This document shows positions 6,982 to 58,655 of a DNA stretch of 64,000 nucleotides, in pieces. The position numbers and the translations under genes were made by a program. Each line of letters begins with the position of its first letter. Position 1 is the stretch's first letter. This stretch comes from an uncultured Gammaproteobacteria bacterium (GTDB lineage Bacteria > Patescibacteriota > Patescibacteriia > XYB2-FULL-38-15): NCBI GenBank assembly GCA_965231095.1, contig OZ246416.1:249228-313227 (forward strand), given 5' to 3'. The notes under the pieces were generated by a model. That model was given only the letters and a program-made list of their open reading frames with translations, was not told the DNA's origin and ran no database searches.

Positions 6982-7153
6982 ATCTGCCTAAACCTCGCTC
7001 CCTCCGCGAGGCATGGCAACTAAATCCTACGCGAATAAAGATGGTCTCCTGACCAGCACTTATTCGCGTAGGTCCACGTCCGAAAGGGCGTGGGGCGATT
7101 CCGAAAGGGGTCGTCGCTGTGTTGGGAGACCTTTTTTGTTTCCCTAGGCAGAT
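6982..7153 (+). ncRNA. Structured non-coding RNA immediately 3' of the RT (retron msr/msd-like or DRT-like ncRNA candidate)
   Basis: A 9-bp terminal inverted repeat (atctgccta at 6982-6990 and taggcagat at 7145-7153) closes the element. Inside are hairpin cctcgc/gcgagg, a perfect 13-bp stem cctacgcgaataa/ttattcgcgtagg (7026-7038/7060-7072) with a 21-nt loop, and two GAAA-tetraloop hairpins (7074-7093, 7095-7117). It ends with gggagacc + TTTTTT. The GNRA loops read GAAA only on the + strand. Confidence 0.5.
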
Positions 7154-16999: not shown

Positions 17000-18985
17000 A
17001 TGGAAAAACCAAAATCAAAATTTGATTTAGTCGGACTGAAAGACGTTTACGAGAAAACAGGATTGCATTTTCGCGATTACTGGGTTTTTTATTTAATGAG
17101 CGGCATCGGCTGGGTGCTCGCCATTTTTTATTTTATTTATCAATATACCCAGCATCAGTTTACTTTTTGGGATGATATAAAATTATTTGGCGGGGCGATT
17201 TCTCTTTTTCAACTTATTAATTATTCTTGGGTGGCGATTGTCGTTTTGGCGCTGGTCATCGGATCGTTTTTATATTCAAACGGCCGCGTCGCTTTACGTA
17301 AAAAAAATATCTTGGAAAAAGAATTGCAAAGAAGAAAAGAGGAGTATAAAAAAATAGTGGAAAATGTTCCCGTGAGCATTTTAACTTTAGATAAAAATGG
17401 GGTAGTGGTGTCGGCTAATCCGTATTTTACGGAGCTCTCGGGAAAATTAGTGGCGGAAAAGATTGGAAAAAATATTTTTGATTTTGGTTTTGTTGAAGAA
17501 TCAGAGGATTTGCAGATGAGATATAAAAGTTTGCTTGGGAAGGGCGAGCCTTTCAATTTTTTCAATTATACGCGCGACTCTTGGTCTCCTAAAAAATTTC
17601 TTAATTTTTATGCCGTGCCGTTAAAAAATAAAAGAGGTGAAATAGAGGGGGCGATATCCGTGGCGCAAGACAATACTGAAACGTTTATTGCGCTCGAAGA
17701 GGCAAGAGCCAGAGCTAAACAATTATATTTAATAAGCCAAGTTTCACGGGCGATTAATTCAGTTCTTAATTTAAGAGAGGTGCTTTGGTTGATTCTTAGA
17801 AACGCCGTTAAGCTGTCTAATGCGGTTTCAGGAGCGATTTTATTACTTGAGAATGAGGATGATTTAGTTATTAGGGAGGCTTACAACATGCCGCCAACCG
17901 CCGCCAATCTTAAAATAAAAATCGGTCAGGGACTTTGCGGCCATGCCGCGTTTATCAAGCAGTCATATTTTAGTAATGATGTTGAGAAAGACCCTTATTA
18001 TATCAGCAGGGCGGAAGTGCCAAGCGTAAAATCGGAATTAGCTGTGCCGATTCTTTTAGAAAAAAAAGTTATTGGGGTAATTAAAATTGACAGTGATGAA
18101 GCGGGGAGATTTAAAGACGAGGATGTTGAGTTAATGACAACTCTTGCCAATAATGCGGCGATTGCTATTGCCAATAGCCAGATGTATGGAGAAATAAAAG
18201 ATTTAAATAAAAATTTGGAAGAAAAGGTATTGCAGAGAACGGAAGAATTAAAAATTGCCAATCAAAAATTGGAAAAATCAATTGAATTAAAATCTCAGTT
18301 TATCGCTGACGCGTCGCATGAACTCAGGACGCCCCTTACTATAATGAAGGGAAATTTAGATATTGCTCTTTTAGATGAAAAAGCTGCCGCGAAAGATTTG
18401 CGAGAGTCTTTAAAAATAATTGACGAAGAAGTTGGGCATATGTCCGGGATCCTGGCCGACCTGATGATTTTGACGCACGCCGGAGCGGGGAAATTGAGCC
18501 TCAAGAAGAATCTGGCGAGTATTGATAATCTTTTGAAAATTACCGCGCAGTCAATGGAAATATTGGCAAAAGAAAAAAATATCAAAATTGGAATTGACTC
18601 AGATGAAAAAGTTATGGCAATGGTTGATGAAGATAAATTTTTAAAATTACTTTTGAATTTGGTTTCCAACGCGATCAAGTATGGCAAGAAAAACGGTTGG
18701 GTTAAATTATCGGTAGCTGACACGGATAAGGGGGTGAAAGTTATTGTGGCTGATAGCGGGATAGGTATTCCGGGAAACGAACTGCCTTTTATTTTTGAAA
18801 GATTTTATCGCGTCGATAAAGTCCGCACCAGGGAAAAAATCGGCGGTAGCGGCCTGGGGCTTGCGATTTGTAAATCAATTGTTGAAGCGCACGGCGGCCA
18901 GATTGATGTTTCAAGTATTCTCGGAGAGGGGAGTAAATTTATAATTCATTTGCCGAAAAAAAGTTTAGACTTTGGAGAGGGTTGA
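17000..18985 (+). CDS. Sensor histidine kinase (2 TM, PAS, GAF, HisKA, HATPase_c). The track start at 16988 is TTG; ATG at 17000.
   Basis: H-box FIADASHELRTPLT; G-boxes DSGIGIP and GGSGLGLAICK; a GAF-like middle region; a PAS-like region VPVSILTLDKNGVVVSANPYF. Confidence 0.85.
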   Translation: MEKPKSKFDLVGLKDVYEKTGLHFRDYWVFYLMSGIGWVLAIFYFIYQYTQHQFTFWDDIKLFGGAISLFQLINYSWVAIVVLALVIGSFLYSNGRVALRKKNILEKELQRRKEEYKKIVENVPVSILTLDKNGVVVSANPYFTELSGKLVAEKIGKNIFDFGFVEESEDLQMRYKSLLGKGEPFNFFNYTRDSWSPKKFLNFYAVPLKNKRGEIEGAISVAQDNTETFIALEEARARAKQLYLISQVSRAINSVLNLREVLWLILRNAVKLSNAVSGAILLLENEDDLVIREAYNMPPTAANLKIKIGQGLCGHAAFIKQSYFSNDVEKDPYYISRAEVPSVKSELAVPILLEKKVIGVIKIDSDEAGRFKDEDVELMTTLANNAAIAIANSQMYGEIKDLNKNLEEKVLQRTEELKIANQKLEKSIELKSQFIADASHELRTPLTIMKGNLDIALLDEKAAAKDLRESLKIIDEEVGHMSGILADLMILTHAGAGKLSLKKNLASIDNLLKITAQSMEILAKEKNIKIGIDSDEKVMAMVDEDKFLKLLLNLVSNAIKYGKKNGWVKLSVADTDKGVKVIVADSGIGIPGNELPFIFERFYRVDKVRTREKIGGSGLGLAICKSIVEAHGGQIDVSSILGEGSKFIIHLPKKSLDFGEG

Positions 18986-19145
18986 CAGTAAATAATAATT
19001 AAGATAAAGTTGTTTTTCATAGTTCTTTTAGATAATTTGAGTGGCCTACCGAAGTTTACCCACGGGGGTGATTTTGGCGGGCCACTCAAGGTGTTAGTGG
19101 GAAATGGGGGGGCGGTGATAAACAGTGGCACCGTAAGGTGCAGTG

Positions 19146-20129
19146 ATGGATAAAGAGAAAGGGAAAGAAAGGTCAAGGATTCTTCTTGAGCTCGGGGGCC
19201 AAGAGATGAGGATCACAAAAAGGCGATCCTTAATCCAGGGCGTACGTCCGAGCGCGGAGGAACTGTGGGCAAATGTCGGGAATGGCGGTGCCGTGCCGAT
19301 CATCTATCGAGATCTTCCTTACAAGCGGGTTCAAGCTAACCTTCAGGTTCCCGTGTCTTGCGGATGTGAGTTGGCGGTTTGGGGCAGAGAAAGAGGCTGG
19401 AGGGGCGGCTGTTCGTTTTGCGATATTGGAAGGTTCGCTCGCCACCGCTACTTGAATGTTTCGGAGGTACTGAGCTTGGTCGGCCTGATCCTCGGAAAAT
19501 CATCCCTGGCGGATCGTTTCTGGGGGAGACAAGAGAAGTGTCTCGTGATCTCCTTTTCAGCCGCCGGGGAACCGCTTCTGAGATGGGGGATGGTAAAGGA
19601 GGCCATAATAGCTCTCTCTCGGATTTTCGGGGAAAACGGCGTTCGAGTGTTCTTCTCGATCTGCACCGTTGGGGTTGCGGACGGGATTCGCGAGCTCCTG
19701 CACGATATCAGGTTCTGCGACGAATATCGCCTTCAACTGCGTTTCTCTCTGCACTTCACGTCCGATGAAGACCGAGGGAAGTTCATTCCTGCCAATGATC
19801 CCATTCGACGAATCGTCGAACTCGGGACGACCTACGCCGAAACCGTCGGGGTAAGGTTGGTCCTCCACTACGCACTGATCCAGGGAGTCAATGACTCGCG
19901 CGAACATGCACGAGCTCTGATCAAACTGCTCTACGACCGGAGGGAACACATCCTCGTACGCGTCTCGCGGATCAATCCTGATTGCGGCGCGGGAAAAGTC
20001 GAGCTCGCTCCTTCATCCAAAAGCCGGCGGAGGAAGTTCGTTAGACTTTTGAAAGAAGGAGGACTGGAATGTTCGCCAGTCTGGGAGGGCTACGCAAGAT
20101 GGGCGTGTAACGCCGCCCATTTCCGCTAA
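19146..20129 (+). CDS. RlmN/Cfr-family radical SAM protein (rRNA adenine-C methyltransferase-like) in a GC-rich block, with an atypical Cys motif
   Basis: Collinear with RlmN: CSFCDIGRFARHRYLNVSEVLS resembles CSTGQQGFNRNLRVSEI, and LIQGVNDSREHARALIKLL…VRVSRINPDCGAG…SSKSRRRKFVRLLKEGGLECS…ARWACNAAHF matches the RlmN C-terminus including the second conserved Cys. The N-terminal cluster is SCGCELAVWGRERGWRGGCSFC rather than CX3CX2C. Confidence 0.55.
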   Translation: MDKEKGKERSRILLELGGQEMRITKRRSLIQGVRPSAEELWANVGNGGAVPIIYRDLPYKRVQANLQVPVSCGCELAVWGRERGWRGGCSFCDIGRFARHRYLNVSEVLSLVGLILGKSSLADRFWGRQEKCLVISFSAAGEPLLRWGMVKEAIIALSRIFGENGVRVFFSICTVGVADGIRELLHDIRFCDEYRLQLRFSLHFTSDEDRGKFIPANDPIRRIVELGTTYAETVGVRLVLHYALIQGVNDSREHARALIKLLYDRREHILVRVSRINPDCGAGKVELAPSSKSRRRKFVRLLKEGGLECSPVWEGYARWACNAAHFR

Positions 20130-20162: not shown

Positions 20163-20203
20163 AAGAGGCTTATCTAAGGAGGAGATAGGCCTCTCTTTTT
20201 TTG
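20163..20203 (+). terminator. Terminator after the RlmN/Cfr-like gene
   Basis: agaggcttatct…agataggcctct hairpin followed by a T7 run. Confidence 0.4.
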
Positions 20204-20220
20204 CTTATTTTTAAATGGTG

Positions 20221-20249
20221 TTGACCTTTTTAGAAGAATATCTTATAAT
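20221..20249 (+). promoter_or_regulatory. Consensus sigma70 promoter of the atp operon
   Basis: TTGACC-17 bp-TATAAT. Confidence 0.5.
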
Positions 20250-27651: not shown

Positions 27652-28086
27652 ATGCAGCAGTACCCATTCAGAAATTTCCATCATGTTCCCGCCGTGGCCA
27701 TCTACTGTTTGGATCCGAGATTCCGAGAACAGCACGAACGGTTCATCGCTGGAGAGTTGGGCTTCGGGGAATTCGACCAGTATGTCTTTCCGGGCGGACC
27801 GAAAGTACTCGTGGACGAAGCCACACGAGCATTTTTTCTTGGCGCCATTGAGAAAGTCTCGATCGGACTTCACGGGGCCAAGGAAATAATCCTCATCGCT
27901 CATCGCGACTGCGGCGCCTATGGCGGATCCAAGAAATTCGGGAATCCGGCTGAAGAAAAAGCGACGCAGGTTGAAGACCTGAAGATCGCTCGTGGCGTTC
28001 TTGCCGAACGGTTTCCCGGGATCACCGTGACCATGTTCTACGCCGAGATCACTGGCGAATTCGTGGAGTTTTTCCCGGTAAACTAA
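27652..28086 (+). CDS. Beta-carbonic-anhydrase-like small protein (144 aa) in a GC-rich block
   Basis: Zinc-ligand motifs CLDPR (CxDxR) and HRDCGAYGG (HxxCG), spaced about 65 aa apart as in beta-CAs; SD gaggaggag. Confidence 0.4.
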   Translation: MQQYPFRNFHHVPAVAIYCLDPRFREQHERFIAGELGFGEFDQYVFPGGPKVLVDEATRAFFLGAIEKVSIGLHGAKEIILIAHRDCGAYGGSKKFGNPAEEKATQVEDLKIARGVLAERFPGITVTMFYAEITGEFVEFFPVN

Positions 28087-30181: not shown

Positions 30182-30661
30182 CTAGACCGCGATGGGCTGG
30201 TTCACGTAGAAGGCGGCGAGCGTGGCGATGATCTTCATCGCCTCAGCCTCGCCGATCTGGCGGAAGTCGCCGGCCGAAACCCGGCAGTCGGCCGCCAGAC
30301 TGCGGATGGTCTCGGTTCCGTCTCCCCCGATGCGGGTGGAGCCCTCCACTCCCCAGATATTGGCATCAGGGAAGTAGCTGACCAGGATCAGGCGTTCGCT
30401 TTCCTCTCCTCCGGTCAGAGCGACTTCGATCGAGGTGGGCTCCCACCTCTCTTGCTCTTCCTTGGGGGCGCTGGGGCTCACGCGCCCGAAGACGAGATCC
30501 CAGCCGAGGAGGAAGCCGCTGCGCGCCGACGTGTCGAAACCGGCGATGATGTCGTCGTAGTGGACGGCCTCATGCCCGTGGACGCGAAGCCTGGCAAAGA
30601 TCTCCTCGACTTTCTGGCACAACACGATCGTCTTCTTCAATCTTTCGAGCCGGGAATTCAT
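30182..30661 (-). CDS. Hypothetical protein, paralog A of a tandem 3-member family (GC-rich)
   Basis: Shares MxSRLxxLxxxIxLCxxVxxIF…GFxxxxxSGxLLGW…SIEVxL…AxxIIxTLxxFY with the neighbouring ORFs. It has its own TTGACA-17-TAGATT promoter and SD gaaggaggg. Confidence 0.5.
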   Translation of the reverse strand: MNSRLERLKKTIVLCQKVEEIFARLRVHGHEAVHYDDIIAGFDTSARSGFLLGWDLVFGRVSPSAPKEEQERWEPTSIEVALTGGEESERLILVSYFPDANIWGVEGSTRIGGDGTETIRSLAADCRVSAGDFRQIGEAEAMKIIATLAAFYVNQPIAV

Positions 30662-30805
30662 CCCTTACACCCTCCTTCTCGCCCAAACCCAATTGTTTAG
30701 GCTACACTATAATCTAACAACAAAATTATAAATTGTCAAGACTTCCTTATTCTTTTAAAATAAAAAAGCCGACCGAAGAGCAAGTGTTCCTGGTCGGCAG
30801 ACGGA

Positions 30806-31285
30806 CTATCCTCCCGCTGTGATCGCGGTCTTGACCGCGGAAAGGTTGGTATAAAAGTCGACGAGTGTTCGGATAATCGCAAAGGCTTGACCTCTACTGA
30901 TCACCCGAAAATCTCTGTTGGGCGCGAGATCCCAGGTGTCGGCCAGTTTTTGCAACGAAGCGTCTTTCGTCGCGAAACAATATTTGGCCTTCCAGATCAA
31001 GCCACCTTCACTGGGTAAAAGAATCTGGTCGCAGCGTACCTGGATGATTGGGTTGTGTCTGTCTCCCCAACTGATGAACACCTCGATGGAAATGTGTGTC
31101 TCTCTGATGTCGAGACACCAACCAAGAAGGTAGTCGCATCTTGAAGGGGCGGTGAATCCGGCGCAAAAAGGGTTGTACGGAGCAGGGATTGCTTCGCTTC
31201 CTGTGACGCTGCTTGATTCGAAGATCCCTTCAACTTCATTGCACAGTTTGATCACCCGCGTCAGTACCTGAAGTCTTGAATGCAC
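30806..31285 (-). CDS. Hypothetical protein, paralog B
   Basis: Homologous to A and C; SD aaagggagg; terminator hairpin gccgacc…ggtcggc+T6 downstream. Confidence 0.5.
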   Translation of the reverse strand: MHSRLQVLTRVIKLCNEVEGIFESSSVTGSEAIPAPYNPFCAGFTAPSRCDYLLGWCLDIRETHISIEVFISWGDRHNPIIQVRCDQILLPSEGGLIWKAKYCFATKDASLQKLADTWDLAPNRDFRVISRGQAFAIIRTLVDFYTNLSAVKTAITAGG

Positions 31286-31308
31286 TTTTGTCCTCCCTTT
31301 AGGTGCAA

Positions 31309-31764
31309 CTAGCCCACGGATAGCTTAGCGTAGAATTCGGCGAGCGACTCGATGAGTTCGAGCGCCTTGTGTTCGTCCACCAAGGTCGCACCGCGTATAA
31401 GCGACCACCTGAAGACGAGATCATGGACTGCTTGGAATCTGTCGATCTCGAAAGTTAGCACCACGCCCCACCCACAGCCGACAGTGTAAAGGAATTTGAT
31501 CAATTCTTCTGAATTGTCACCCCCGTCGTTCCAGAGACTCACCTCGAGCTGGCAAGGAAGAAGCTCGCCTACGCGACTCGCGTGGTTGTCGAGGTAATTT
31601 AACCGCCAGATGAGAACCAACCCACTCTTGGGTTCGGCGACGAAATCCACAATGGTGGCCGGGTGGTAGATCTGCCGGCCGACAACCCTTGCCTCTCGGA
31701 AGATGTTCATGATGCGATCGCAGAGCGCTAACATACCATGCAAGTCACCAAGCCTATTATCCAT
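31309..31764 (-). CDS. Hypothetical protein, paralog C
   Basis: Homologous to A and B; promoter TTGACA-16-TAAATT; SD aaaggaggg. Confidence 0.5.
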   Translation of the reverse strand: MDNRLGDLHGMLALCDRIMNIFREARVVGRQIYHPATIVDFVAEPKSGLVLIWRLNYLDNHASRVGELLPCQLEVSLWNDGGDNSEELIKFLYTVGCGWGVVLTFEIDRFQAVHDLVFRWSLIRGATLVDEHKALELIESLAEFYAKLSVG

Positions 31765-33378: not shown

Positions 33379-33585
33379 ATGGTGAGAGATGACGACGTTT
33401 TTCTCTTCGAGGTCAAGTGTGAAACATGCGGGGAAAATTTCTACTACGACGCCCTGACCTTGACCTTGGCGCGGATTCGTGTTCGCTTCGGCGTACACGA
33501 GTTCTGCTGCCACTGGCGTAACGCTACCGCGGTTGGAGAAAAAAATCCCGCCGCGAGAAAAAAGGAGGAAAGAAGATGCCGTTGA
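33379..33585 (+). CDS. Small Cys-containing protein (68 aa) in a GC-rich cassette
   Basis: Promoter TTGACA-17-TATATT upstream, SD ggagggttg, and C…CxxC…CC content. Confidence 0.35.
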   Translation: MVRDDDVFLFEVKCETCGENFYYDALTLTLARIRVRFGVHEFCCHWRNATAVGEKNPAARKKEERRCR

Positions 33586-33641
33586 TCGAAGTTGCGGTCA
33601 AGCGGTTTGACCCGGCGAAGGACGCGTTCTCTTCGAGCTAG
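33576..33641 (+). CDS. Candidate 21-aa peptide (MPLIEVAVKRFDPAKDAFSSS) overlapping the previous ORF's stop
   Basis: Near-perfect SD aaaaggagga 5 nt upstream of the ATG. Coding status speculative. Confidence 0.2.
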   Translation: MPLIEVAVKRFDPAKDAFSSS

Positions 33642-33789
33642 TTCGGAGGTCTGCGGCTGTTAGCCGTTCGCGGTGTCACTTAACTCGTGGCGCCGCTTTT
33701 TTTATTTGACTTTTATCCCAATTTATATAAAATAGACTTATCAAGGTCGCTTTTCTAAACAGCGCGAGGCAAGGGAAAGGGAGGCGGAA

Positions 33790-34107
33790 ATGGTAACGAT
33801 TGAGGTTGGGAATACGGGAGTAGAAGAACGGAAGCGGCGATTCAAGGATATGCTGACAAAAGAGATCGTGAAGATCGGGGGCATCGGAGACAACGTGGAT
33901 GTGACGATCCGGTTCTGTGGCGCGACAGACCGGAGGCGAGGGCCGCTCAATCTCCACATTTTGGACGGCAGCGGTCTTCCGGGCCATCTTCACGGCAAGA
34001 TCGCCGAGGGTCTTTGCTCGGTAGCCAGGAGGTTCTACGAGGAAAACGGCCACGGTGTCCGACCGGTGGAAACTACGATCGGTTCCGTTTTGCGCAAAAT
34101 CGACTAG
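33790..34107 (+). CDS. Hypothetical protein (105 aa), GC-rich
   Basis: Own promoter TTGACT-16-TAAAAT, SD gggaggcgg, and terminator gcggcag…ctgccgc+T-run. Confidence 0.45.
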   Translation: MVTIEVGNTGVEERKRRFKDMLTKEIVKIGGIGDNVDVTIRFCGATDRRRGPLNLHILDGSGLPGHLHGKIAEGLCSVARRFYEENGHGVRPVETTIGSVLRKID

Positions 34108-34330
34108 GAGGCTTACTAATAAGCGAAAGCGGCAGGGGTAAAAATCTCTGCCGCTTCTTTTTTTCTCTGCGGGGGTTGACAAATTTTATAAATAGTGTAT
34201 AATAAAGGCATAATTCAATAAGCTCCGTTTTAAGCGGAGCAAGTAGAAGAGTAGGACAATTTTAACGATAGATCCTTAAGATAATATCAAAAGGTCATAA
34301 GTTAAAATGACCGAGACTTCCAAGTAACTT

Positions 34331-40716: not shown

Positions 40717-40849
40717 ATTTTCTATAAATAGTATAGCATATTTTCCCCTTGACAACAAATAAGTTATCTGTTATTATATAGCCATCTTGAAGTGGGGAAG
40801 TCCTTCACGGCGAAGGGCGACTTCTCCCTACGGAAGAAGGAGGAACAAG

Positions 40850-40933
40850 ATGACGAGAACCAGGTACGGGCCGTTCGCGCTGTCGTACAGCGCGGAAACA
40901 TTGGTCGCTTCCTCGTCGACTTCGGCGGCCTGA
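40850..40933 (+). CDS. Candidate 27-aa peptide (MTRTRYGPFALSYSAETLVASSSTSAA) at the start of a GC-rich island
   Basis: Promoter TTGACA-17-TATTAT at 40750-40778, a structured leader, and SD aaggagg 7 nt upstream of the ATG. Speculative. Confidence 0.25.
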   Translation: MTRTRYGPFALSYSAETLVASSSTSAA

Positions 40934-40947
40934 CCGGCGCCCCACCG

Positions 40948-41077
40948 GCGTCCTCCGTTCTCGGTGATCCATTCACACTAGGCATCGTCGTCCTGACAAT
41001 GCTACACCGAGGACAAAGTTCCTAACCCGTCTGCCGACCCAAGGTTCATCCAAGAATCTTTCTGGGTCGGCTTTTTT
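40948..41077 (+). repeat. Direct repeat copy 1 (about 130 bp, includes a terminator hairpin)
   Basis: About 98% identical to 41800-41929 apart from one divergent 14-bp patch; ends gccgaccca…tgggtcggc+T7. Confidence 0.75.
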
Positions 41078-41184
41078 TATTTCAAATAAAATTTGACAAA
41101 AAATATAGTAAATGTAAAATGCGGAACATATAGTTTGAAAGCGGAACATGGGGTTCTGCTACGTGAAAGGGAAGGGAAAAGAAG

Positions 41185-41775
41185 ATGACGAAGATTCTGT
41201 TTGCGTTCTTGTTCGGGTTGCTGATCGTCGGCGCGGCAAATGCGTCGACCACCACCATCTATGGAACCGCCTGGGATGACGACATCACCGTGATGCGGTA
41301 CCACTACAGCGGCTTCCTGGTTGAGGGGGCATGCGTCAACAATACGTGGCACTTGGGCGGAGACGCCACGTCGAGCGATCTCATCTACGTGTACGGAGGG
41401 ACCGGTGATGACCGCATCGACGTGATCACCACGGATGGTGATTTTTTCGTCTGTGGGGGTGAGGCGAAGCGCGTCTACAGCCTCGACTACAGCTACGCGT
41501 GCCCAGGAGTTTTGCTCTCCGGAGATGATGACGACGATGTTCTCGTCGGCGGAGAATGTGCCGAGGTGCTCTCGGGTGGCGACGACAACGACACCTTATT
41601 CGGAGGGGCAGGTTGCGACTACCTCTATGGGGGTTGTGGCTCGGACTGCCTGTCGGACAGCAACGTCTGCACAGTCGACTGCGGCGAGTGCGGAACCGAC
41701 AACGACTCAGAGGCAACGCCCCTGTCTCCCTCGAGCTGCGAGAACTCCGCGATGTTCTGCTTCATCTCGGGGTGA
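41185..41775 (+). CDS. Secreted RTX-like calcium-binding repeat protein (196 aa)
   Basis: Signal peptide MTKILFAFLFGLLIVGAANAS; GGxGxD-type repeats (YGGTGDDRIDV, LSGGDDNDTLFGGAGCDYLYGGCGSD); Asp/Cys-rich. Promoter TTGACA-16-TAAAAT upstream. Confidence 0.55.
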   Translation: MTKILFAFLFGLLIVGAANASTTTIYGTAWDDDITVMRYHYSGFLVEGACVNNTWHLGGDATSSDLIYVYGGTGDDRIDVITTDGDFFVCGGEAKRVYSLDYSYACPGVLLSGDDDDDVLVGGECAEVLSGGDDNDTLFGGAGCDYLYGGCGSDCLSDSNVCTVDCGECGTDNDSEATPLSPSSCENSAMFCFISG

Positions 41776-41799
41776 CGAGGTCTGGGCTAGCAGCCTTTC

Positions 41800-41929
41800 C
41801 GTCCTCCACTCTCGGTGATCTATCTATATATAGCATCGTCGTCCTGACAATGCCACACCGAGGACAAAGTTCCTAACCCGTCTGCCGACCCAAGGTTCAT
41901 CCAAGAATCTTTCTGGGTCGGCTTTTTTT
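41800..41929 (+). repeat. Direct repeat copy 2
   Basis: See copy 1; together they bracket the RTX-like gene. Confidence 0.75.
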
Positions 41930-42027
41930 ATCTCTTGACGGAAAATTAAATATAATTTAACCTAAGCAAAAGGTTAGAAACCTTGACGCGAGGCAGTTCG
42001 CCCGCGTGGAAAAGGGAGGGAAGTAAC

Positions 42028-42279
42028 GTGGAAACTACGCTGTTCGCGATCTGGATCGTCGGGGTCGTCTTGGTTCTGGCGGCTGGGGTATGTTGGGAGT
42101 GGTGGCTCGAAGTTGAGGAGAGGAATCACGGGGAGCCGTGGTTCGGCACCGTCGTCTTCGTGGCTCTCATCTGGCCCGCACTTCTGTGCTTCTTTGTCTT
42201 GCCCATGGGGATCATGCGGGTTTGGGGCAAGGTAGAGGAGGTGATGGCGAGAAGGAGATTCGCGAGAGGAGAGTGGTAA
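42028..42279 (+). CDS. Small 2-TM membrane protein (83 aa, GTG start)
   Basis: SD aagggaggg 8 nt upstream of the GTG; W-rich TM helices. Confidence 0.4.
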   Translation: METTLFAIWIVGVVLVLAAGVCWEWWLEVEERNHGEPWFGTVVFVALIWPALLCFFVLPMGIMRVWGKVEEVMARRRFARGEW

Positions 42280-42476
42280 TGATAGACATCCTTGGTCCGT
42301 TGATCGGCGTTGCGTTCGCCGCGGCGTTTGCTCTGGATCTTTGGTGCGAGCCGCTCCTGTTCGACACCTTCGGCACCTCTGGTGCGACCGGGTTCTGGGA
42401 GAACGGTGCCCAGACCCGTTGCACATTCGTCGAGACCGCTCCTGTTCGGATCGCTGGAGAGTGCTCGCTCGCTTGA
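42279..42476 (+). CDS. Small protein (65 aa) coupled to the previous ORF (TAATG overlap)
   Basis: MIDILGPLIGVAFAAAFALDLW… hydrophobic N-terminus. Confidence 0.35.
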   Translation: MIDILGPLIGVAFAAAFALDLWCEPLLFDTFGTSGATGFWENGAQTRCTFVETAPVRIAGECSLA

Positions 42477-42581
42477 TCGGCCCGGACAACGTAACCGTCG
42501 CGTTGGACACCCGGGCAAAATGAGGAATGGCGGCTTACCTGCGGCACGACGCCCCATCCGAGGGAAGGAAGGAACCCCGGC

Positions 42582-42857
42582 ATGATAAGTGCTGGAATCG
42601 TGCCTGCCCTCGTGCAGATCTGCGTCGGTGGTAACTGGGACGTCTGCTCTTACACTTCGCCGTTGTTTACGTCCGTCCATCACGACGGTCGTACGAACGA
42701 CCTCGACGGACGAGACGGTGTCTTCGAATGCTCGGAGGACGCTCCGCGCGTTCGCGACGAGGTGACGAGCGCCCGGCCAAGCGGAAGCCCGCTCCTGGCC
42801 GTTCGTACCAGTACACCGTGCAGTTCATGCGCGAGACAGGCACGCGCGCCGCCCTGA
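42582..42857 (+). CDS. Hypothetical Cys-containing protein (91 aa)
   Basis: SD ggaagga; followed by terminator cccggct…agccggg+T6 (about 42864-42912). Confidence 0.35.
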   Translation: MISAGIVPALVQICVGGNWDVCSYTSPLFTSVHHDGRTNDLDGRDGVFECSEDAPRVRDEVTSARPSGSPLLAVRTSTPCSSCARQARAPP

Positions 42858-43018
42858 CGTAACCCCGGCTTGTGAAGAGACCGAAATATCTTCCGAGCCG
42901 GGTCTTTTTTATGTCGCAAAAATTCAAAAATCCTAACCAATATGCTGGATAGGATTTTATGTTGGAGTCCCGATTTTAGTCGGGCAAAATTGCCCACTCT
43001 AAAGAGTGGATTCCGTTT

Positions 43019-45652
43019 TTATTTCACCGCGAAGGTGATTTTTTTATCTTTATCCAATCCGATGGCAACCTTATCTCCATCTTTTATTTTTCCTTCAATA
43101 ATCTGCATGGCTAATTCATCCAGAATCATATTTTGAATTACGCGTTTCAGCGGCCGGGCGCCAAAGAGCGGATCAAAACCCTTTTCCGCAAGCATTTTTT
43201 CTACCGCGTCAGAAATATCCAGTTTTATTTTTTTGGCATCAAGCCGTTTTTGCACTTCAGCCAATTGCAATTCAATAATTTTCCCAATTTCCGATTTCCC
43301 CAAACTTTTGAAAATCACAATCTCGTCAATGCGATTTAAAAATTCCAATTTAAACGTCTCGCGCAAAATTTCCATAATCTTGTCGCGCATTTCATTGTCG
43401 CGGCTTGCTTCCTGATTTTCTCCGTCACGAAATCCGATAGAGTAATCTCGTATAACTTGATTTCCTAAATTTGAGGTCATGATAATGATCGTGTTTTTGA
43501 AGTTCACGGTACGGCCGCGGCCATCGGTCAGGCGTCCGTCGTCTAAAATCTGGAGTAAAATATTAAAAACTTCCGGATGGGCTTTTTCAATTTCATCAAA
43601 AAGTACGACAGAATACGGCCGGCGGCGAATTGCTTCGGTTAATTGTCCGCCCTCGTCATAGCCAACATATCCGGGGGGAGAGCCGACAAGCCGCGCCACA
43701 GAATGCTTTTCCATATACTCTGACATATCAACTCGAACAAGCGCGTTTTCATCGTTAAACATAAATTCGGCCAGAGCTTTTGAAAGTTCGGTTTTTCCAA
43801 CTCCAGTCGGCCCGACAAAAATGAAGGAGCCGATTGGTTTCTTTTCTTCGGAAATTCCGGCGCGAGAACGGCGGAGGGCATTGGCAATGGTTTTGATTGC
43901 GTCTTTTTGGCCAATAACCCGACGCCGAAGTTCGTCTTCGGCGTGCGCCAATTTTTCCACTTCACCTTGGAGCATTTTCGAAACCGGAACGCCGGTCCAG
44001 CGGGAAACAACCTTGGCAATATCTTCATCAGTGACTTCTTCGCGCAAAATTCTTTTTTCCCGCGGCGTCTTTTTAAGTTTCTTTTCAAGTGCGATAATTT
44101 CTTTTTCCAATTCGGGAATTTTTCCATAGCGAATCTCGGCGACTTTTTCCAATTCACTTTTCCGCTCGGCAATATCGGCCTGCTGTTTGGCCGCGTCAAT
44201 TTGTTTTTGAGCTTTTCTGATTTGACTGATTAAGTCCTTTTCATAACGCCAGCCGATTTCCAATTCTTTTGATTTTTCCTGCAATTCAGCCAATTCTTTA
44301 TTTAATTTTTTTAACTCATCTTTAACGTCTTCATTCTTTTCTTTCAAAAGAGCCTGGCGTTCAATCTCCGACTTCATCATTTTTCGTTTCAGTTGATCAA
44401 GCTCGGTGGGCATAGAATCAATTTCCATCCGGAGAGCGGAAGTCGCTTCGTCAATTAAATCAACCGCTTTGTCCGGCAAAAAACGGTCGGAAATATAGCG
44501 ATGCGAAAGAGTCGCCGCCGCGATAATCGCCGCGTCGGTAATTTTTACGCCATGATGAACTTCATATTTTTCTTTAATGCCGCGCAAAATCGCAATCGTA
44601 TCTTCGACTGACGGCTCTCCAACGTAAACCGGTTGAAAACGTCGTTCTAGAGCCGCATCTTTTTCAACGTACTTGTGATATTCTTTTAAAGTTGTCGCCC
44701 CGATTGTATGGAGTTCGCCGCGAGCGAGGGCCGGTTTTAACATATTTGAAGCATCCATCGCCCCCTCAATCGCTCCGGCGCCAACAATCGTGTGCAGCTC
44801 GTCAATAAATAAAACAATTTTTCCGGCGGCTTGTTTTACTTCTTTAATTACAGCTTTCAGGCGGTCTTCAAACTCGCCGCGAAATTTTGTTCCGGCCAGC
44901 AATGATCCCAAATCCAGGGAAATTAATTCTTTATCTTTCAAACTTTCTGGCACGTCACCGGCGACAATTCTTTGCGCCAAACCTTCAACAATCGCGGTTT
45001 TCCCCGTGCCCGCCTCACCAATCAAAACCGGATTATTTTTTGTCCGGCGGGAAAGAACTTGCATCACACGGCGGATTTCTTCGTCACGGCCAATGACCGG
45101 ATCCAATTTTTTCCCTCGAGCCAGTTCGGTAAGATTAATTGTATATTTTTCCAAAACTTGATATTTCGCTTCCGGTTCCGGAGAGTCAACTTTTTGCGTG
45201 CCACGAACTTCAACTAAAACTTTAAGCGCACCATCATAAGTAACGCCTGCGTTAAATAAAATTTCCCCAGCCCGACTTTTTACGCCAACTAATCCTAAAA
45301 GTAGATGCTCAGTACTGATATATTCATCTTTCATTTTTTTGGTTTCTTTTTCCACGGCGTAAAAAACCTGAACCATTTCCTGGCCAACATTCATCTGCGC
45401 CATACCACCCTGGCGCCGGCCGGAATGTTTTGGCAATTTTTGAAATTCTTCGGAAATTTTTTGTTTCAAATCTCCGACGTTAATTCCTAATTTTTGAAGT
45501 AGAGAGCCGACAATTCCGCCCTCCTGATCCAAAAGCGCGGAAAGGACATGGAGCGGATCTAAATACTGATGATTATATTCAAAAACCAACCCCTGGGCCG
45601 CCTGAAGAGCTTCTTGGGATTTGGTGGTAAAATTTTGCGGAAGCATTGGCAT
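43019..45652 (-). CDS. clpB: ATP-dependent chaperone ClpB
   Basis: Two AAA+ modules ([15 protein letters not shown]; [15 protein letters not shown]) separated by a long coiled-coil middle domain; N-terminal Clp_N repeats. Confidence 0.95.
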
Positions 45653-46185: not shown

Positions 46186-47208
46186 TTATTTTAAAATTAA
46201 ATTTAAATCTTCTCCGCATTTGGCGCATTTACCATTTTTATCATGACGCACAATTTCATATCCATGACGTTCAACCATTTTTACTCCGCACTTTGGGCAA
46301 AATGTTGTTTCGTATTCTGGCAGCGCCACATTGTCTAAGTAAACGTATTTTAGTCCGGATCTCTTTCCGACTTCCCGAGCTTCAATGAGTGACGACGGGG
46401 GAGTGGGCGGCAAATCTCGCAGTCTGTAGGTTGGAAAAAATTTGGAAATATGCCAGGGAGTTTCCCTTCCCAATTCTTTGGCGATAAAATTGGCAATGCC
46501 TTCAAAATGTTCTGCCGTATCATTTCCTCCGGGTACAACAAGAGTTGTAACTTCCACCCAAACTCCGCCTTGTTTTATGATTTTTAAAGTTTGCAAAACC
46601 GGCTTTAATTTCGCTCCGCAGACCGTGTAATAAAATTTTTCAGTAAAACCTTTAAGATCAATATTTACCGCGTCAAGATAGGGGATTGCTTCGGTTAAAA
46701 CTTCGCGGCTCGTGTAGCCATTTGACACCCAAACATTTTTTAAATTATTTTTTCGCGCGAGTTTCATTGTCTCCAGGGCAAACTCAATAAAAATTGTCGG
46801 CTCGGAATAAGTGTAAGAAATTGACGGCGCTCCGGAAAGCAAGGCCTCGCTCACAACTTCTTCCGGCGTCATATCTTGGCCCGGGACATTTTCTTCCCTT
46901 AAGTCGCTCTCTTTGGGCATTTGGGCAATGTCCGCGTTTTGGCAATAAAGGCATCTAAAATTACATCCAACCGTGGCGATGGATAAACTTTTCGTCCCGG
47001 GCAAAAAATGGAAAAGAGGTTTTTTCTCAATCGGGTCAATATTTTTGGCAATTACTTTTCCATAAACTAATGAATAAAGCGTGCCGTCAATATTTCGCCG
47101 CACAGAACAAATTCCGCGCCGCCCGGGAGAAATTTGGCAATAATGATTACAGGCCTGGCATTGAACCTTTTGTTCCTCTAATTTTTTATAAAATTGTGCC
47201 TCTTTCAT
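46186..47208 (-). CDS. Radical SAM enzyme, AmmeMemoRadiSam (AmrS)/PFL-activase-like. The track start at 47226 is TTG; ATG at 47208.
   Basis: CNFRCLYCQN (CX3CX2C) with an N-terminal CxxC…C zinc knuckle and a C-terminal CPKCG…CAKCG. Confidence 0.75.
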   Translation of the reverse strand: MKEAQFYKKLEEQKVQCQACNHYCQISPGRRGICSVRRNIDGTLYSLVYGKVIAKNIDPIEKKPLFHFLPGTKSLSIATVGCNFRCLYCQNADIAQMPKESDLREENVPGQDMTPEEVVSEALLSGAPSISYTYSEPTIFIEFALETMKLARKNNLKNVWVSNGYTSREVLTEAIPYLDAVNIDLKGFTEKFYYTVCGAKLKPVLQTLKIIKQGGVWVEVTTLVVPGGNDTAEHFEGIANFIAKELGRETPWHISKFFPTYRLRDLPPTPPSSLIEAREVGKRSGLKYVYLDNVALPEYETTFCPKCGVKMVERHGYEIVRHDKNGKCAKCGEDLNLILK

Positions 47209-47286
47209 ACTATACGATTGTACCAAAAATTTGTAAAAAAATAAACCGACGCTTCCTCCCTTGCGTCGGTAATGTTCTTTCGCAGA

Positions 47287-47475
47287 TCACTTCTTCTCTT
47301 CCCATCCGCGCGCGATCAGTTCGGCATCATGCATGGTGAGTTTCCGCGAGTTGAAGCGCAACCCCCGAAAAACGTCGGGCGGCAACTTCTCGCGCAGGTA
47401 GCGCAAAGCGGCTTCCGTCTCACCGTGCCGATCGCCTTGCGTCACACCCTTCTGTCCACCTTGTTGCTTTGTCAT
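47287..47475 (-). CDS. Hypothetical small protein (62 aa), last gene of the GC-rich minus-strand operon
   Basis: Follows the Zn-ribbon gene; terminator hairpin ccgacgc…gcgtcgg+T-run at 47236-47262 (minus sense). Confidence 0.35.
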   Translation of the reverse strand: MTKQQGGQKGVTQGDRHGETEAALRYLREKLPPDVFRGLRFNSRKLTMHDAELIARGWEEKK

Positions 47476-47489
47476 TTTTTCCTCCGATT

Positions 47490-47957
47490 CTACGCCGCCT
47501 CACCCCGTGGAACTACGCCGCAGTCCGGACACTGGATGATCCGCTCGAACGACTTTGTGTACGTCCCGAAGGCGTGCTTGTTTCCGCAGCGGGGACAGGC
47601 GAGATCGTACTTGATCCAGTGAACGTGCTTCTCCCAGTCGCAAATCAAACATCGCAGAACAAAATACGGCGGCTTCATCTCCCTGGTCTGCATGCCGTTG
47701 TGTCCGCACCTTTGGCAAAAAAAGCCCGTGTCGCAGTGAACGCAGTGACCCTTGCCATCTGCCGGAATGGCGCAAACATGAGGATGGTGTTGCGGCGAAA
47801 TTTGCAGCCGCGCCCTTGTCAGGCGACTTTCGGCAGCCGCGCCTATCCCGACACGAACCACGCAAGCGTGACACTGCGAGCAAAGCCCTCCTTGCTTCCG
47901 CGGATGCCCGCAATTCGGGCAAGGATCTCCGTCGTATTTACCCCAAGAGTCTTCCAT
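47490..47957 (-). CDS. Multi-zinc-ribbon protein (155 aa from ATG 47957; the track's GTG start is at 48023)
   Basis: Seven CxxC pairs (CPNCG, CSQCH, CVHCD, CQRCG, CLICD, CPRCG, CPDCG); SD ggagag. Confidence 0.45.
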   Translation of the reverse strand: MEDSWGKYDGDPCPNCGHPRKQGGLCSQCHACVVRVGIGAAAESRLTRARLQISPQHHPHVCAIPADGKGHCVHCDTGFFCQRCGHNGMQTREMKPPYFVLRCLICDWEKHVHWIKYDLACPRCGNKHAFGTYTKSFERIIQCPDCGVVPRGEAA

Positions 47958-47967
47958 TTTTTCTCTC

Positions 47968-48147
47968 CTATCCGGAAACGTTCGGTCCGTAGATGGTCCG
48001 ATACGCCTCTTCAAAACGCGCACCTTCGCGTACTTTTACGGCGCGGAGTGCCGCAGTCCAAAACACAACAGACGCGCGCTCCTCAAACGACAAATTTCTC
48101 CACCACCTGAGAACTTCGCGTTGTTTTTGAGTTTCCTTCCTAGCCAT
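47968..48147 (-). CDS. Small protein (59 aa; MARKETQKQREVLRWWRNLSFEERASVVFW…), first gene of the GC-rich operon
   Basis: Not in the ORF track (below 60 aa). Strong SD aaaaggagga before the ATG; promoter TTGACT-17-TAGATT upstream (about 48185-48215, minus sense). Confidence 0.3.
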   Translation of the reverse strand: MARKETQKQREVLRWWRNLSFEERASVVFWTAALRAVKVREGARFEEAYRTIYGPNVSG

Positions 48148-48265
48148 TTTTCCTCCTTTTCTACCATAAATCTATCAAAAAACCTAAATTTAGTCAATCC
48201 CCAAAAGTTTGCCTAAAATTATAAAAAATGCTACAATTTTATACTAAATACTTTATGACATATTA

Positions 48266-57778: not shown

Positions 57779-57902
57779 ATTTTTAAGGTTGTTTTAAACA
57801 ATTTATTGCTTTAATTTTATCTTAATTTAAGAATAATGTCAAAATTTTAATTTGCGAAAAATATCCTATTTGGTAAGATAAAAATTAAGGAGGGAGTAAA
57901 CA

Positions 57903-58070
57903 ATGACAAAAGGCAAAAAATCGCCAAGGATAGCACGGCGATGGGCAAAGGCCTTGAAGACATACGGCGCGAGAAGCTGGAGGGAGCTCACCCCAGAGGA
58001 ACGGTTCGCGGCCTACGAGAGAGGGCTTCACTACTGGCAAAATCAGGAGGGCACACTTCCTCTGAGCTGA
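57903..58070 (+). CDS. Small basic protein (55 aa; MTKGKKSPRIARRWAKALKTYGARSW…) in a GC-rich block
   Basis: Not in the track. SD aaggaggg 8 nt upstream; promoter TTGCGA-16-TAAGAT; terminator ccggcg…cgccgg+T-run downstream. Confidence 0.25.
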   Translation: MTKGKKSPRIARRWAKALKTYGARSWRELTPEERFAAYERGLHYWQNQEGTLPLS

Positions 58071-58181
58071 CGGAGACAAAAACCGGCGAATCCAAAAATG
58101 GAAACGCCGGAATTTTTTATATAAAAAAGAGCACCGATTTGTAGTCGATGCTCGGATTCGGGAAAGCGGCGCGCGGGCCGC

Positions 58182-58529
58182 CTACTTCGCCAGGTGCAAA
58201 TCGATCCGGCAGAAGCCCATCTCCTCGCGCTCCTCGGGCGTATTGGGCGTCGTCGCCACCTCGATCTTCTCGCCCTCGAGCTGCATGGCCGCGATGATCT
58301 CGCAGATCTTGACCAAAAGCGGCTCATCGCCACTCTCAGAATTGTCATCGAATTTCCGATGGGTCCACCCACCCCCCTGTCCCCCACCCACGATGAGGAT
58401 CTGGCTGCGGCCGAAGAGACGGACGGCGTTCAGAGCGTTCGTCACTACTTCCGGCTCGATCGTGCCGCGAATGCCGAACGCCGCCGGTTTCTGGCGCAAG
58501 GCCAACTGAAGTACGAGTTTCTGACCCAT
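58182..58529 (-). CDS. Hypothetical protein (115 aa), GC-rich
   Basis: SD aaggagg before the ATG; Gly-rich ILIVGGGQGGGW segment; terminator hairpin downstream. Confidence 0.4.
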   Translation of the reverse strand: MGQKLVLQLALRQKPAAFGIRGTIEPEVVTNALNAVRLFGRSQILIVGGGQGGGWTHRKFDDNSESGDEPLLVKICEIIAAMQLEGEKIEVATTPNTPEEREEMGFCRIDLHLAK

Positions 58530-58655
58530 TCCCCTTCCTCCTTCTTTTCCTCAAAGTTGAGGATTTTATAGCTTAAAATATTTACACCCTTTTGTCAAGA
58601 GATAACAAAAGCCAGGTCAAATGACCTGGCCAATCTTTTAATTACCCACTACTCA

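Follow-up and report, generated by a model that had tools for sequence, protein, structure and literature searches.

The gene considered here, referred to as X, lies in a 64,000-nucleotide stretch of contig OZ246416.1 (assembly GCA_965231095.1, positions 249,228 to 313,227 of the forward strand), which was analysed as a whole and is called the window below. X is located on the plus strand, with a two-component system on one side and the atp operon on the other, and the order response regulator, PAS/GAF histidine kinase, X, atpI and atpB is shared by all loci of its family that were recovered with flanks. It is one continuous open reading frame (ORF) that begins at 19143 (GTG) or 19146 (ATG) and ends at 20129. 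The ATG at 19146 is aligned with the first residue in 14 of 14 family members and has AAGGTG just upstream. The public annotation of the protein (P0001) places the start 20 codons downstream of this ATG, which would remove an N-terminal helix that is conserved and confidently modelled. The product is an RlmN-derived protein, remote from the curated families of both RlmN and Cfr. In the reading preferred here, which is given a probability of roughly 0.55, X is an active, lineage-specific and fast-evolving radical S-adenosylmethionine (SAM) enzyme of RlmN descent with altered chemistry, acting on RNA.

The relatedness to RlmN and Cfr proposed in a preliminary description of this DNA is borne out by NCBIfam, by a PDB sequence search and by Foldseek, and the peptides quoted there (CGCELAVWGRERGWRGGCSFC, FCDIGRFARHRYLNVSEVLS, INPDCGAG, SSKSRRRKFVRLLKEGGLECS and WACNAAHF) are all found in the ORF. 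Within NCBIfam, X scores 67.5 bits with the RlmN model (TIGR00048; E = 1e-18; cut-off 290 bits) and 63.4, 60.6 and 59.4 bits with three Cfr models (TIGR04432, NF000424 and NF011024; best E = 2e-17; cut-offs 550, 468 and 530 bits), that is, the two sets of models score it alike and with no preference. When the family profile was searched against PDB sequences, Cfr was the best match (E = 5e-15), and RlmN reached E-values down to 9e-13. The AlphaFold2 model of X, built from a 14-sequence alignment, has a mean predicted local distance difference test score (pLDDT) of 84 and a predicted template modelling score (pTM) of 0.87, and it contains the RlmN-type radical SAM core fold with its beta extension. 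Every one of the top 10 Foldseek matches of this model in the PDB is a methyltransferase of the RlmN type (6fz6 or E. coli RlmN), with template modelling (TM) scores of 0.66-0.69 and 21-24% identity; Cfr reaches 0.56, and PFL-AE, an unrelated radical SAM enzyme, reaches about 0.5 (0.51). A Pfam search gave no match of X to PF21016 (RlmN_N), the N-terminal helical RNA-binding domain. In the MAFFT alignment the first helix of that domain (ILxELGG) is kept and about 45 residues are gone. The isoelectric point (pI) ranges over the family from 9.2 to 10.1 and the Arg content from 10 to 12%. A spurious ORF arising from GC richness is ruled out by homology, by the fold model and by the ratio of nonsynonymous to synonymous substitution rates (dN/dS) given below.

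In the motif for the iron-sulfur cluster, the spacing between the first and second Cys is 14 residues rather than 3. Two alignments, one by hhalign with P0012 (the closest protein outside the family) and one by MAFFT with canonical RlmNs, agree in matching C74 to RlmN C125 and in opening a clean gap of 11 residues after it, and both align G88-C89-x-F91-C92 with the canonical second and third cluster Cys. In the MAFFT alignment, E. coli RlmN serves for numbering only. The pattern GC-x14-CxxC is present in 16 of 16 family sequences that cover the motif region, down to 36% identity. In the 14-sequence alignment, the invariant positions here are G73, C74, G80, G84, G88, C89, F91 and C92, and three of these Gly residues (G80, G84 and G88) belong to the insertion segment. 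Among the 135 nearest relatives outside the family that show the motif, the spacing is canonical in all but one, which has x7. In the structural model, strand beta-1 (residues 64-69) stops just before G73-C74 as it does in RlmN, the insertion begins with a predicted helix (residues 75-82) and alpha-1 spans residues 105-118, so that the usual order of elements is kept with one element added. The alignments and the modelled secondary structure together suggest that C74, C89 and C92 occupy the cluster-ligand position. The motif had been described as a disrupted CX3CX2C with a 13-residue insertion. Its spacing is indeed non-canonical; the insertion, however, measures 11 residues by hhalign and MAFFT, and the motif is expanded and conserved rather than disrupted. 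A frameshift masking a canonical motif was considered and excluded, since the frame is continuous and the x14 spacing recurs in 16 independent sequences.

The family comprises three types, A (to which X belongs), B and C, with 35-43% identity between types. The C-terminal Cys of X, C321, is conserved without exception in the family and falls on the Cys of canonical A-C-G-Q in the alignment. In the model, the C-terminal tail has a pLDDT below 50 at residues 314-318 and 321-324, which is consistent with a mobile loop around C321. The site of the resolving Cys, seven residues before the first cluster Cys (-7), is occupied by Gln in X and in all of type A and by Leu in type C; Cys is found there only in type B. 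By comparison, 133 of 135 nearest relatives with the canonical motif have Cys at -7. The resolving Cys is indispensable in RlmN and Cfr to release the enzyme-RNA crosslink and thus for turnover (PMC9692996). Both methyl-relay Cys had been reported for X; one of them, C321, does correspond to RlmN C355, but the site of RlmN C118 holds Gln67. Proteins of type C contain four Cys in total, namely the three of the motif and the C-terminal one, which is strong evidence that these four form the functional set. Five further Cys (C132, C173, C191, C280 and C309 in the 327-residue numbering) are invariant in type A only and are absent from types B and C; they might serve in a second metal site or in disulfides. 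The positions expected to contact SAM (F91, G141-E142-P143, T174, S201 and H203) are invariant and aligned with the canonical sites; the SAM-binding motifs of the superfamily, namely the GGE-like motif, the ribose S/T and the aromatic residue of CxFC, are thus present. Mutation of Cfr F118, S189 and H214, the counterparts of SAM-contact residues of X, impairs activity (PMC2836569).

The X family is confined to a small clade of Patescibacteria. It forms about 16 clusters among 5.8 billion, has four representatives at E < 1e-30 among 1.84 billion (the next matches are generic RlmN-like proteins at about 1e-19) and occurs in 3 of 185,579 species-representative genomes. The relatives are annotated as 'Candidatus Falkowbacteria' or 'Patescibacteria group', and the surroundings of X are those of a small genome of ultrasmall Patescibacteria. 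No relative of X was found in viral contigs, no integrase or integron-like context was found at the X locus and no outside donor was found among the 5.8 billion clusters. X was also considered as a defence system and rejected as such: PADLOC gave no defence-system match, and the PHROGs search returned for X a generic Fe-S family only.

The GC content of X is 55% (0.61 at third codon positions, GC3), as compared with a window mean of 42% and with 38% in each of the flanking histidine kinase gene and atpB, which confirms the compositionally anomalous block noted earlier (0.55 against 0.38 in the neighbours). Leu is encoded by CTG/CTC in X and by TTA/TTG in host genes. All X types are GC-rich, with a GC3 of 0.59-0.68 against 0.28-0.53 in the flanks. 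The excess over host genes amounts to 0.15-0.3 although synonymous sites are saturated (proportion of synonymous differences, pS, about 0.7), and it therefore appears to be maintained and not to be the fading mark of a recent import. One idea is that GC-biased gene conversion at a recombination-prone slot lies behind it. Within type A the dN/dS of X is about 0.11 and the ratio of nonsynonymous to synonymous proportions (pN/pS) is 0.29; X is clearly constrained, being a maintained gene under purifying selection. In genomes that carry differing X types, the regulators are 90-93%, the AtpB proteins 79-89% and the kinases 70-81% identical. The X types are monophyletic with 100% bootstrap support in the X tree and with 8-12% in the tree of the kinase and AtpB flanks, in which the two type B genomes stand apart; being star-like, the flank tree shows incongruence but does not resolve another topology. 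Read most simply, these sequence comparisons suggest that the allelic types already existed before these genomes radiated, and that homologous recombination at one fixed slot has spread them anew. Horizontal acquisition, as first proposed, is upheld in part, in so far as the gene tree conflicts with the flanks and the GC content is anomalous. A simple recent import does not agree with the synteny of all flanked loci, with the lack of a donor among the 5.8 billion clusters or with a GC excess that persists past saturation.

X is preceded by a probable promoter of its own, and at the same place in L002, L007, L011 and L014 (L numbers denote loci of relatives) TTGACA is followed by a TAAGATAAT-like box. 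The leader of roughly 125 nt contains a hairpin (Table 1) that was compared at 11 loci. Leader hairpins precede the gene in the window and in L001, L002, L003, L005, L006, L007, L008, L010, L013 and L014. Over the 11 loci compared, 95% of the cells of the basal stem are paired, and five pairs show compensatory changes. The covariation score exceeds those of all 500 shuffles, slid controls are 34-51% paired, RNAalifold finds double changes in 14 of 28 leader pairs and the folding z-score is -5.5. Conserved G.U pairs indicate that it is the sense RNA which folds. The hairpin is kept across all three protein types and is better conserved than the protein. Rfam searches of the leader and the ORF returned no family at gathering thresholds and nothing beyond noise at E <= 10, and a known RNA family as the source of the GC-rich leader or ORF was rejected on this ground. 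A repeated or mobile hairpin was likewise ruled out: it is present in a single copy in the window, the context is not integrase- or integron-like and there is no viral relative. A second, small hairpin before the start codon has a GUAA, GAAA or GCAA loop in most type A and type C loci and may have a role in translational control. Judged from the sequence, the leader would most obviously serve in translational control or autoregulation. The intrinsic terminator behind X (Table 1) is a strong one, and a like hairpin with a T-run follows the gene in L001, L003, L008 and L010.

Table 1. Features of the X locus, in positions of the window.
Feature	Position	Strand	Details	Basis
Probable promoter of X, sigma-70-like	18982..19010	+	TTGACA-17-TAAAGT; over the stop of the upstream histidine kinase gene	Consensus scan, 10/12 matches
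5' leader hairpin	19038..19088	+	17-bp basal stem and variable apical stem-loop	Covariation over 11 loci
Small hairpin	19128..19141	+	GCACC-GUAA-GGUGC, GNRA-type loop; holds Shine-Dalgarno AAGGUG 4 nt before ATG	
Coding sequence of X	19146..20129	+	327 aa, RlmN-derived radical SAM protein	ORF, family scores, PDB matches, model
Gln67 codon	19344..19346	+	CAG; at the resolving-Cys site (RlmN C118 / Cfr C105)	Alignments
Cluster motif	19365..19421	+	C74-x14-C89-x2-C92 (GCELAVWGRERGWRGGCSFC)	Invariant in family alignments
Insertion relative to CX3CX2C	19374..19406	+	11 residues (77-87), AVWGRERGWRG	hhalign gap, MAFFT gap, AlphaFold2
Cys321 codon	20106..20108	+	TGT; corresponds to the methyl-carrier Cys (RlmN C355 / Cfr C338); followed by invariant His325	Alignments
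Intrinsic terminator, end of the X unit	20164..20204	+	12-bp stem and T-run	Consensus scan
atp operon promoter	20221-20249		Follows the terminator	Consensus scan

A mechanism for X can be proposed from knowledge of the enzyme family. The [4Fe-4S] cluster would be bound through C74, C89 and C92, with the 11 inserted residues making up an additional short helix or loop, comparable to that of Burkholderia QueE, and SAM would be bound via the conserved F91, G141-E142-P143, T174 and S201/H203. C321, on a flexible C-terminal tail, would be the carrier of a methyl group or of some other one-carbon radical handle, and the reaction would follow the class A radical SAM methylase mechanism of RlmN and Cfr. 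The substrate is most likely an RNA adenosine, as suggested by the very basic character of the protein. Without the resolving Cys and with the greater part of the N-terminal RNA-binding domain gone, X must differ from RlmN in product release and substrate recognition. The invariant His325, four residues after C321, could speculatively be a general base. The gene would be an autonomous transcription unit with its own promoter and terminator and with a structured leader that partly occludes the ribosome-binding site. X would thus be an accessory, fast-evolving gene, of which three ancient allelic types (about 40% identical) have been recombined into one fixed slot between the two-component system and the atp operon.

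Several observations weigh against this reading. In an ungapped local HMMER alignment, the nearly invariant G84-W85 falls into the canonical G-Cys register, four residues before C89. A change from Cys to Trp takes a single base, and a conceivable alternative is that the first cluster ligand has been lost by a change of Cys to Trp at W85; given this register and the single-base change, the insertion itself may have originated as a duplication of the cluster loop. The score of X for PF04055 (Radical_SAM) is 19 bits, below the gathering threshold of 29.5, and precomputed PF04055 matches are present for types B and C. X is less constrained than its flanks in type A, where the pN/pS is 0.20 for the kinase, 0.13 for atpB and 0.07 for the regulator. 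Locus L007 (= L012; protein P0008; Falkowbacteria GCA_016214745.1) has an in-frame deletion of about 80 residues (region L007 8001-8750) by which the N-terminal strands and the entire Cys motif are lost, and the remaining 249 codons are open and conserved; either X is dispensable or recently inactivated there or the deletion is an assembly artefact. Moreover, with the resolving Cys absent from X and from type C too, canonical methyl transfer with turnover is not guaranteed. Together with the substitution of Gln67 for that Cys and the loss of most of the N-terminal domain, the Trp register, the sub-threshold Pfam score, the relaxed constraint and the tolerance of a motif deletion in L007 within an otherwise intact ORF would fit a pseudo-enzyme or relic, in which the RlmN fold has been kept and the radical chemistry is gone, leaving an RNA-binding or regulatory role or a slow decay. 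This is nevertheless considered doubtful. C74, C89, C92, C321 and the SAM contacts are invariant across types that are only about 40% identical, type C keeps just those four Cys, Gly residues are invariant inside the inserted segment and the dN/dS is about 0.11; such an exact catalytic set would not persist in a decaying gene. The suggestion that this particular copy is a degenerating pseudo-enzyme is not supported, in view of the same conservation of motif Cys, SAM contacts and C-terminal Cys under purifying selection.

Other readings accept a working gene and differ in what it does. It is unlikely that X is an RlmN descendant with chemistry altered by the loss of the resolving Cys, whose three deeply divergent, GC-rich alleles are retained and shuffled at one recombination-prone slot for a part in host-symbiont or phage conflict, and whose 5' hairpin is a dedicated regulatory, possibly autoregulatory, RNA; such an enzyme might form a covalent enzyme-RNA adduct, or might carry out a new reaction with the help of His325 or some other base, on an RNA target that is also new. 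Quite unlikely is the related proposal of a single-turnover, RNA-crosslinking or re-purposed radical enzyme that serves host-symbiont or phage conflict under diversifying selection and allele swapping. The RlmN variant C118A, which lacks the resolving Cys, does form stable protein-RNA crosslinks (PMC9692996), PDB entries 5hr6 and 5hr7 are among the top Foldseek matches, and the three deep allelic types at one locus, the conflict between gene tree and flanks and the persistent GC anomaly would agree with that proposal. However, neither a PADLOC match nor a relative in viral contigs was found, the neighbours are housekeeping genes, selection in type A is purifying and not diversifying, and type B keeps Cys at -7. 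Equally hard to accept is that X is simply the housekeeping RlmN of this lineage (2-methyladenosine, m2A, at 2503 of 23S rRNA and at 37 of tRNA), made so divergent by the fast evolution of Patescibacteria. No known family or fold is closer to X than RlmN, rlmN is patchily conserved in genomes of the Candidate Phyla Radiation (PMC12641178), and the 64-kb window holds no canonical rlmN. Nonetheless, canonical RlmNs with 46-60% mutual identity are common in Patescibacteria, including a Falkowbacteria genome, which indicates that the lineage is not intrinsically so divergent. The Falkowbacteria RlmN lies in another assembly than the window, and its neighbours are absent from the window. X reaches 67 bits where the RlmN cut-off is 290, lacks a C118 equivalent and the greater part of the N-terminal domain, is 60% different between genomes with about 88% identical AtpB proteins and has lost its motif region in one relative. 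The least probable account is a horizontally acquired Cfr-type rRNA C8-methyltransferase that confers ribosomal resistance to multiple drugs (phenicols, lincosamides, oxazolidinones, pleuromutilins and streptogramin A, PhLOPSA). It draws on the distant match to Cfr models and structure and on the foreign-looking GC content. The Cfr score (63 bits against a cut-off of 550) is no better than the RlmN score, the fold similarity to Cfr (TM 0.56) is below that to RlmN, the equivalent of Cfr C105 is missing, and X sits without a mobile element in a fixed chromosomal slot in all flanked loci; its family occurs in only 3 of 185,579 species-representative genomes. The Cfr-like resistance suggested in the preliminary description is not supported: the RlmN and Cfr scores are equally poor, the N-terminal domain and resolving Cys are lacking, the gene belongs to one locus of one clade and there is no viral or defence match.

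Further GC-rich features were observed in the window and at relative loci. Three tandem paralogous ORFs of 159, 159 and 151 aa at 30182-31764 on the minus strand have common N- and C-terminal motifs and no Pfam match; they lie inside the island with the highest GC content in the window (a peak of 0.64, as compared with about 42% for the window). More sharply bounded islands with a GC of 0.56-0.63 lie at 40801-43050, 47251-48150, 57901-58650 and 33451-34200. These islands contain only orphan or implausible ORFs, except for a secreted-looking protein with an RTX calcium-binding repeat at 41185-41775, and a comparison of the islands with Rfam gave no match at gathering score. A GC-rich gene (GC3 0.61) for a putative carbonic anhydrase (Pro_CA_2) follows atpC at 27652-28086. 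Its relatives are found in L001 (15929-16363 and 16456-16917, two copies that differ in GC) and L007 (16187-16636), and identities are 43-68% between genomes with an AtpC identity of 84-93%; from this pattern, GC-rich and fast-diverging accessory genes seem to be recurrent in the lineage. In L003 (2377-3459) and L007 (2258-3361), a GC-rich ORF of 360-367 aa with no Pfam match lies between the methionyl-tRNA synthetase and CvpA genes, and in the window these two genes abut at about 14696 without an extra ORF. The window also has a match to LOOT RNA (RF03000) at 6985-7115 on the plus strand (77 bits, gathering threshold 46.4). A second radical SAM protein, of 346 aa, with a canonical CX3CX2C and ordinary GC, is encoded at 46186-47226 on the minus strand; it is unrelated to RlmN, giving no match to the canonical RlmN profile.

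If X is active, it would be the first known RlmN/Cfr-type (class A) radical SAM enzyme with CX14CX2C and without a resolving Cys; a literature search found no report of an enzyme of this type with these two properties. It would then provide a natural experiment on how a protein-RNA crosslink can be resolved and on the limits of remodelling a cluster loop. The analysis also removes a false alarm, as a new Cfr-like multidrug-resistance determinant is unsupported. The combination of three ancient alleles in one fixed slot, a GC3 excess despite saturated synonymous sites and a covarying leader RNA with stronger conservation than the protein is a separate curiosity of Patescibacteria genome biology.

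X can be compared with four known proteins. QueE of Burkholderia multivorans has the identical CX14CX2C spacing with the same 11-residue expansion, described there as a canonical cluster site 'with one extended loop' (PMC4389238). QueE differs in belonging to an unrelated radical SAM branch with another chemistry and substrate, and X has no match to a QueE family in NCBIfam; the two motifs are analogous in geometry, and the insertion is not homologous. Cfr (PDB 9P0P; TIGR04432/NF000424), the 23S rRNA A2503 C8-methyltransferase, belongs to the same superfamily branch and is the best PDB match by sequence. The equivalents of its F118, S189 and H214 are conserved in X. Unlike Cfr, X lacks an equivalent of C105, and it is chromosomal and clade-restricted rather than carried on plasmids or transposons. 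P0012, an uncharacterised RlmN-like metagenomic protein of 434 aa, is the closest sequence outside the family (32% identity over 252 columns; hhalign probability 99.9) and shares with X a truncated architecture upstream of the core. In contrast to X, it has a canonical CX3CX2C, Cys at -7 and a C-terminal S-G-C-G-Q. The N-terminal extension of P0012 has a weak, sub-threshold match to a response-regulator receiver domain (E = 0.0035), and X is always located directly downstream of a two-component system. The best fold match is RlmN (E. coli, PDB 3RFA/5HR7; TIGR00048), a dual-specificity RNA m2A methyltransferase. Both are basic proteins in which beta-1, the cluster loop and alpha-1 follow in the same order, both have the CxFC, GEP, T-x-G, S-x-H and N-D motifs, and both have an invariant C-terminal Cys at the methyl-carrier position C355. 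They differ in the cluster motif (CX3CX2C with resolving C118 in RlmN, CX14CX2C with Gln in type A or Leu in type C in X), in the N-terminal domain (about 60 residues in RlmN, of which X keeps the first helix only) and in the C-terminal motif (W-A-C-N-A-A-H-F in X, A-A-C-G-Q-L in RlmN). Unlike RlmN, X evolves far faster than the genes next to it.

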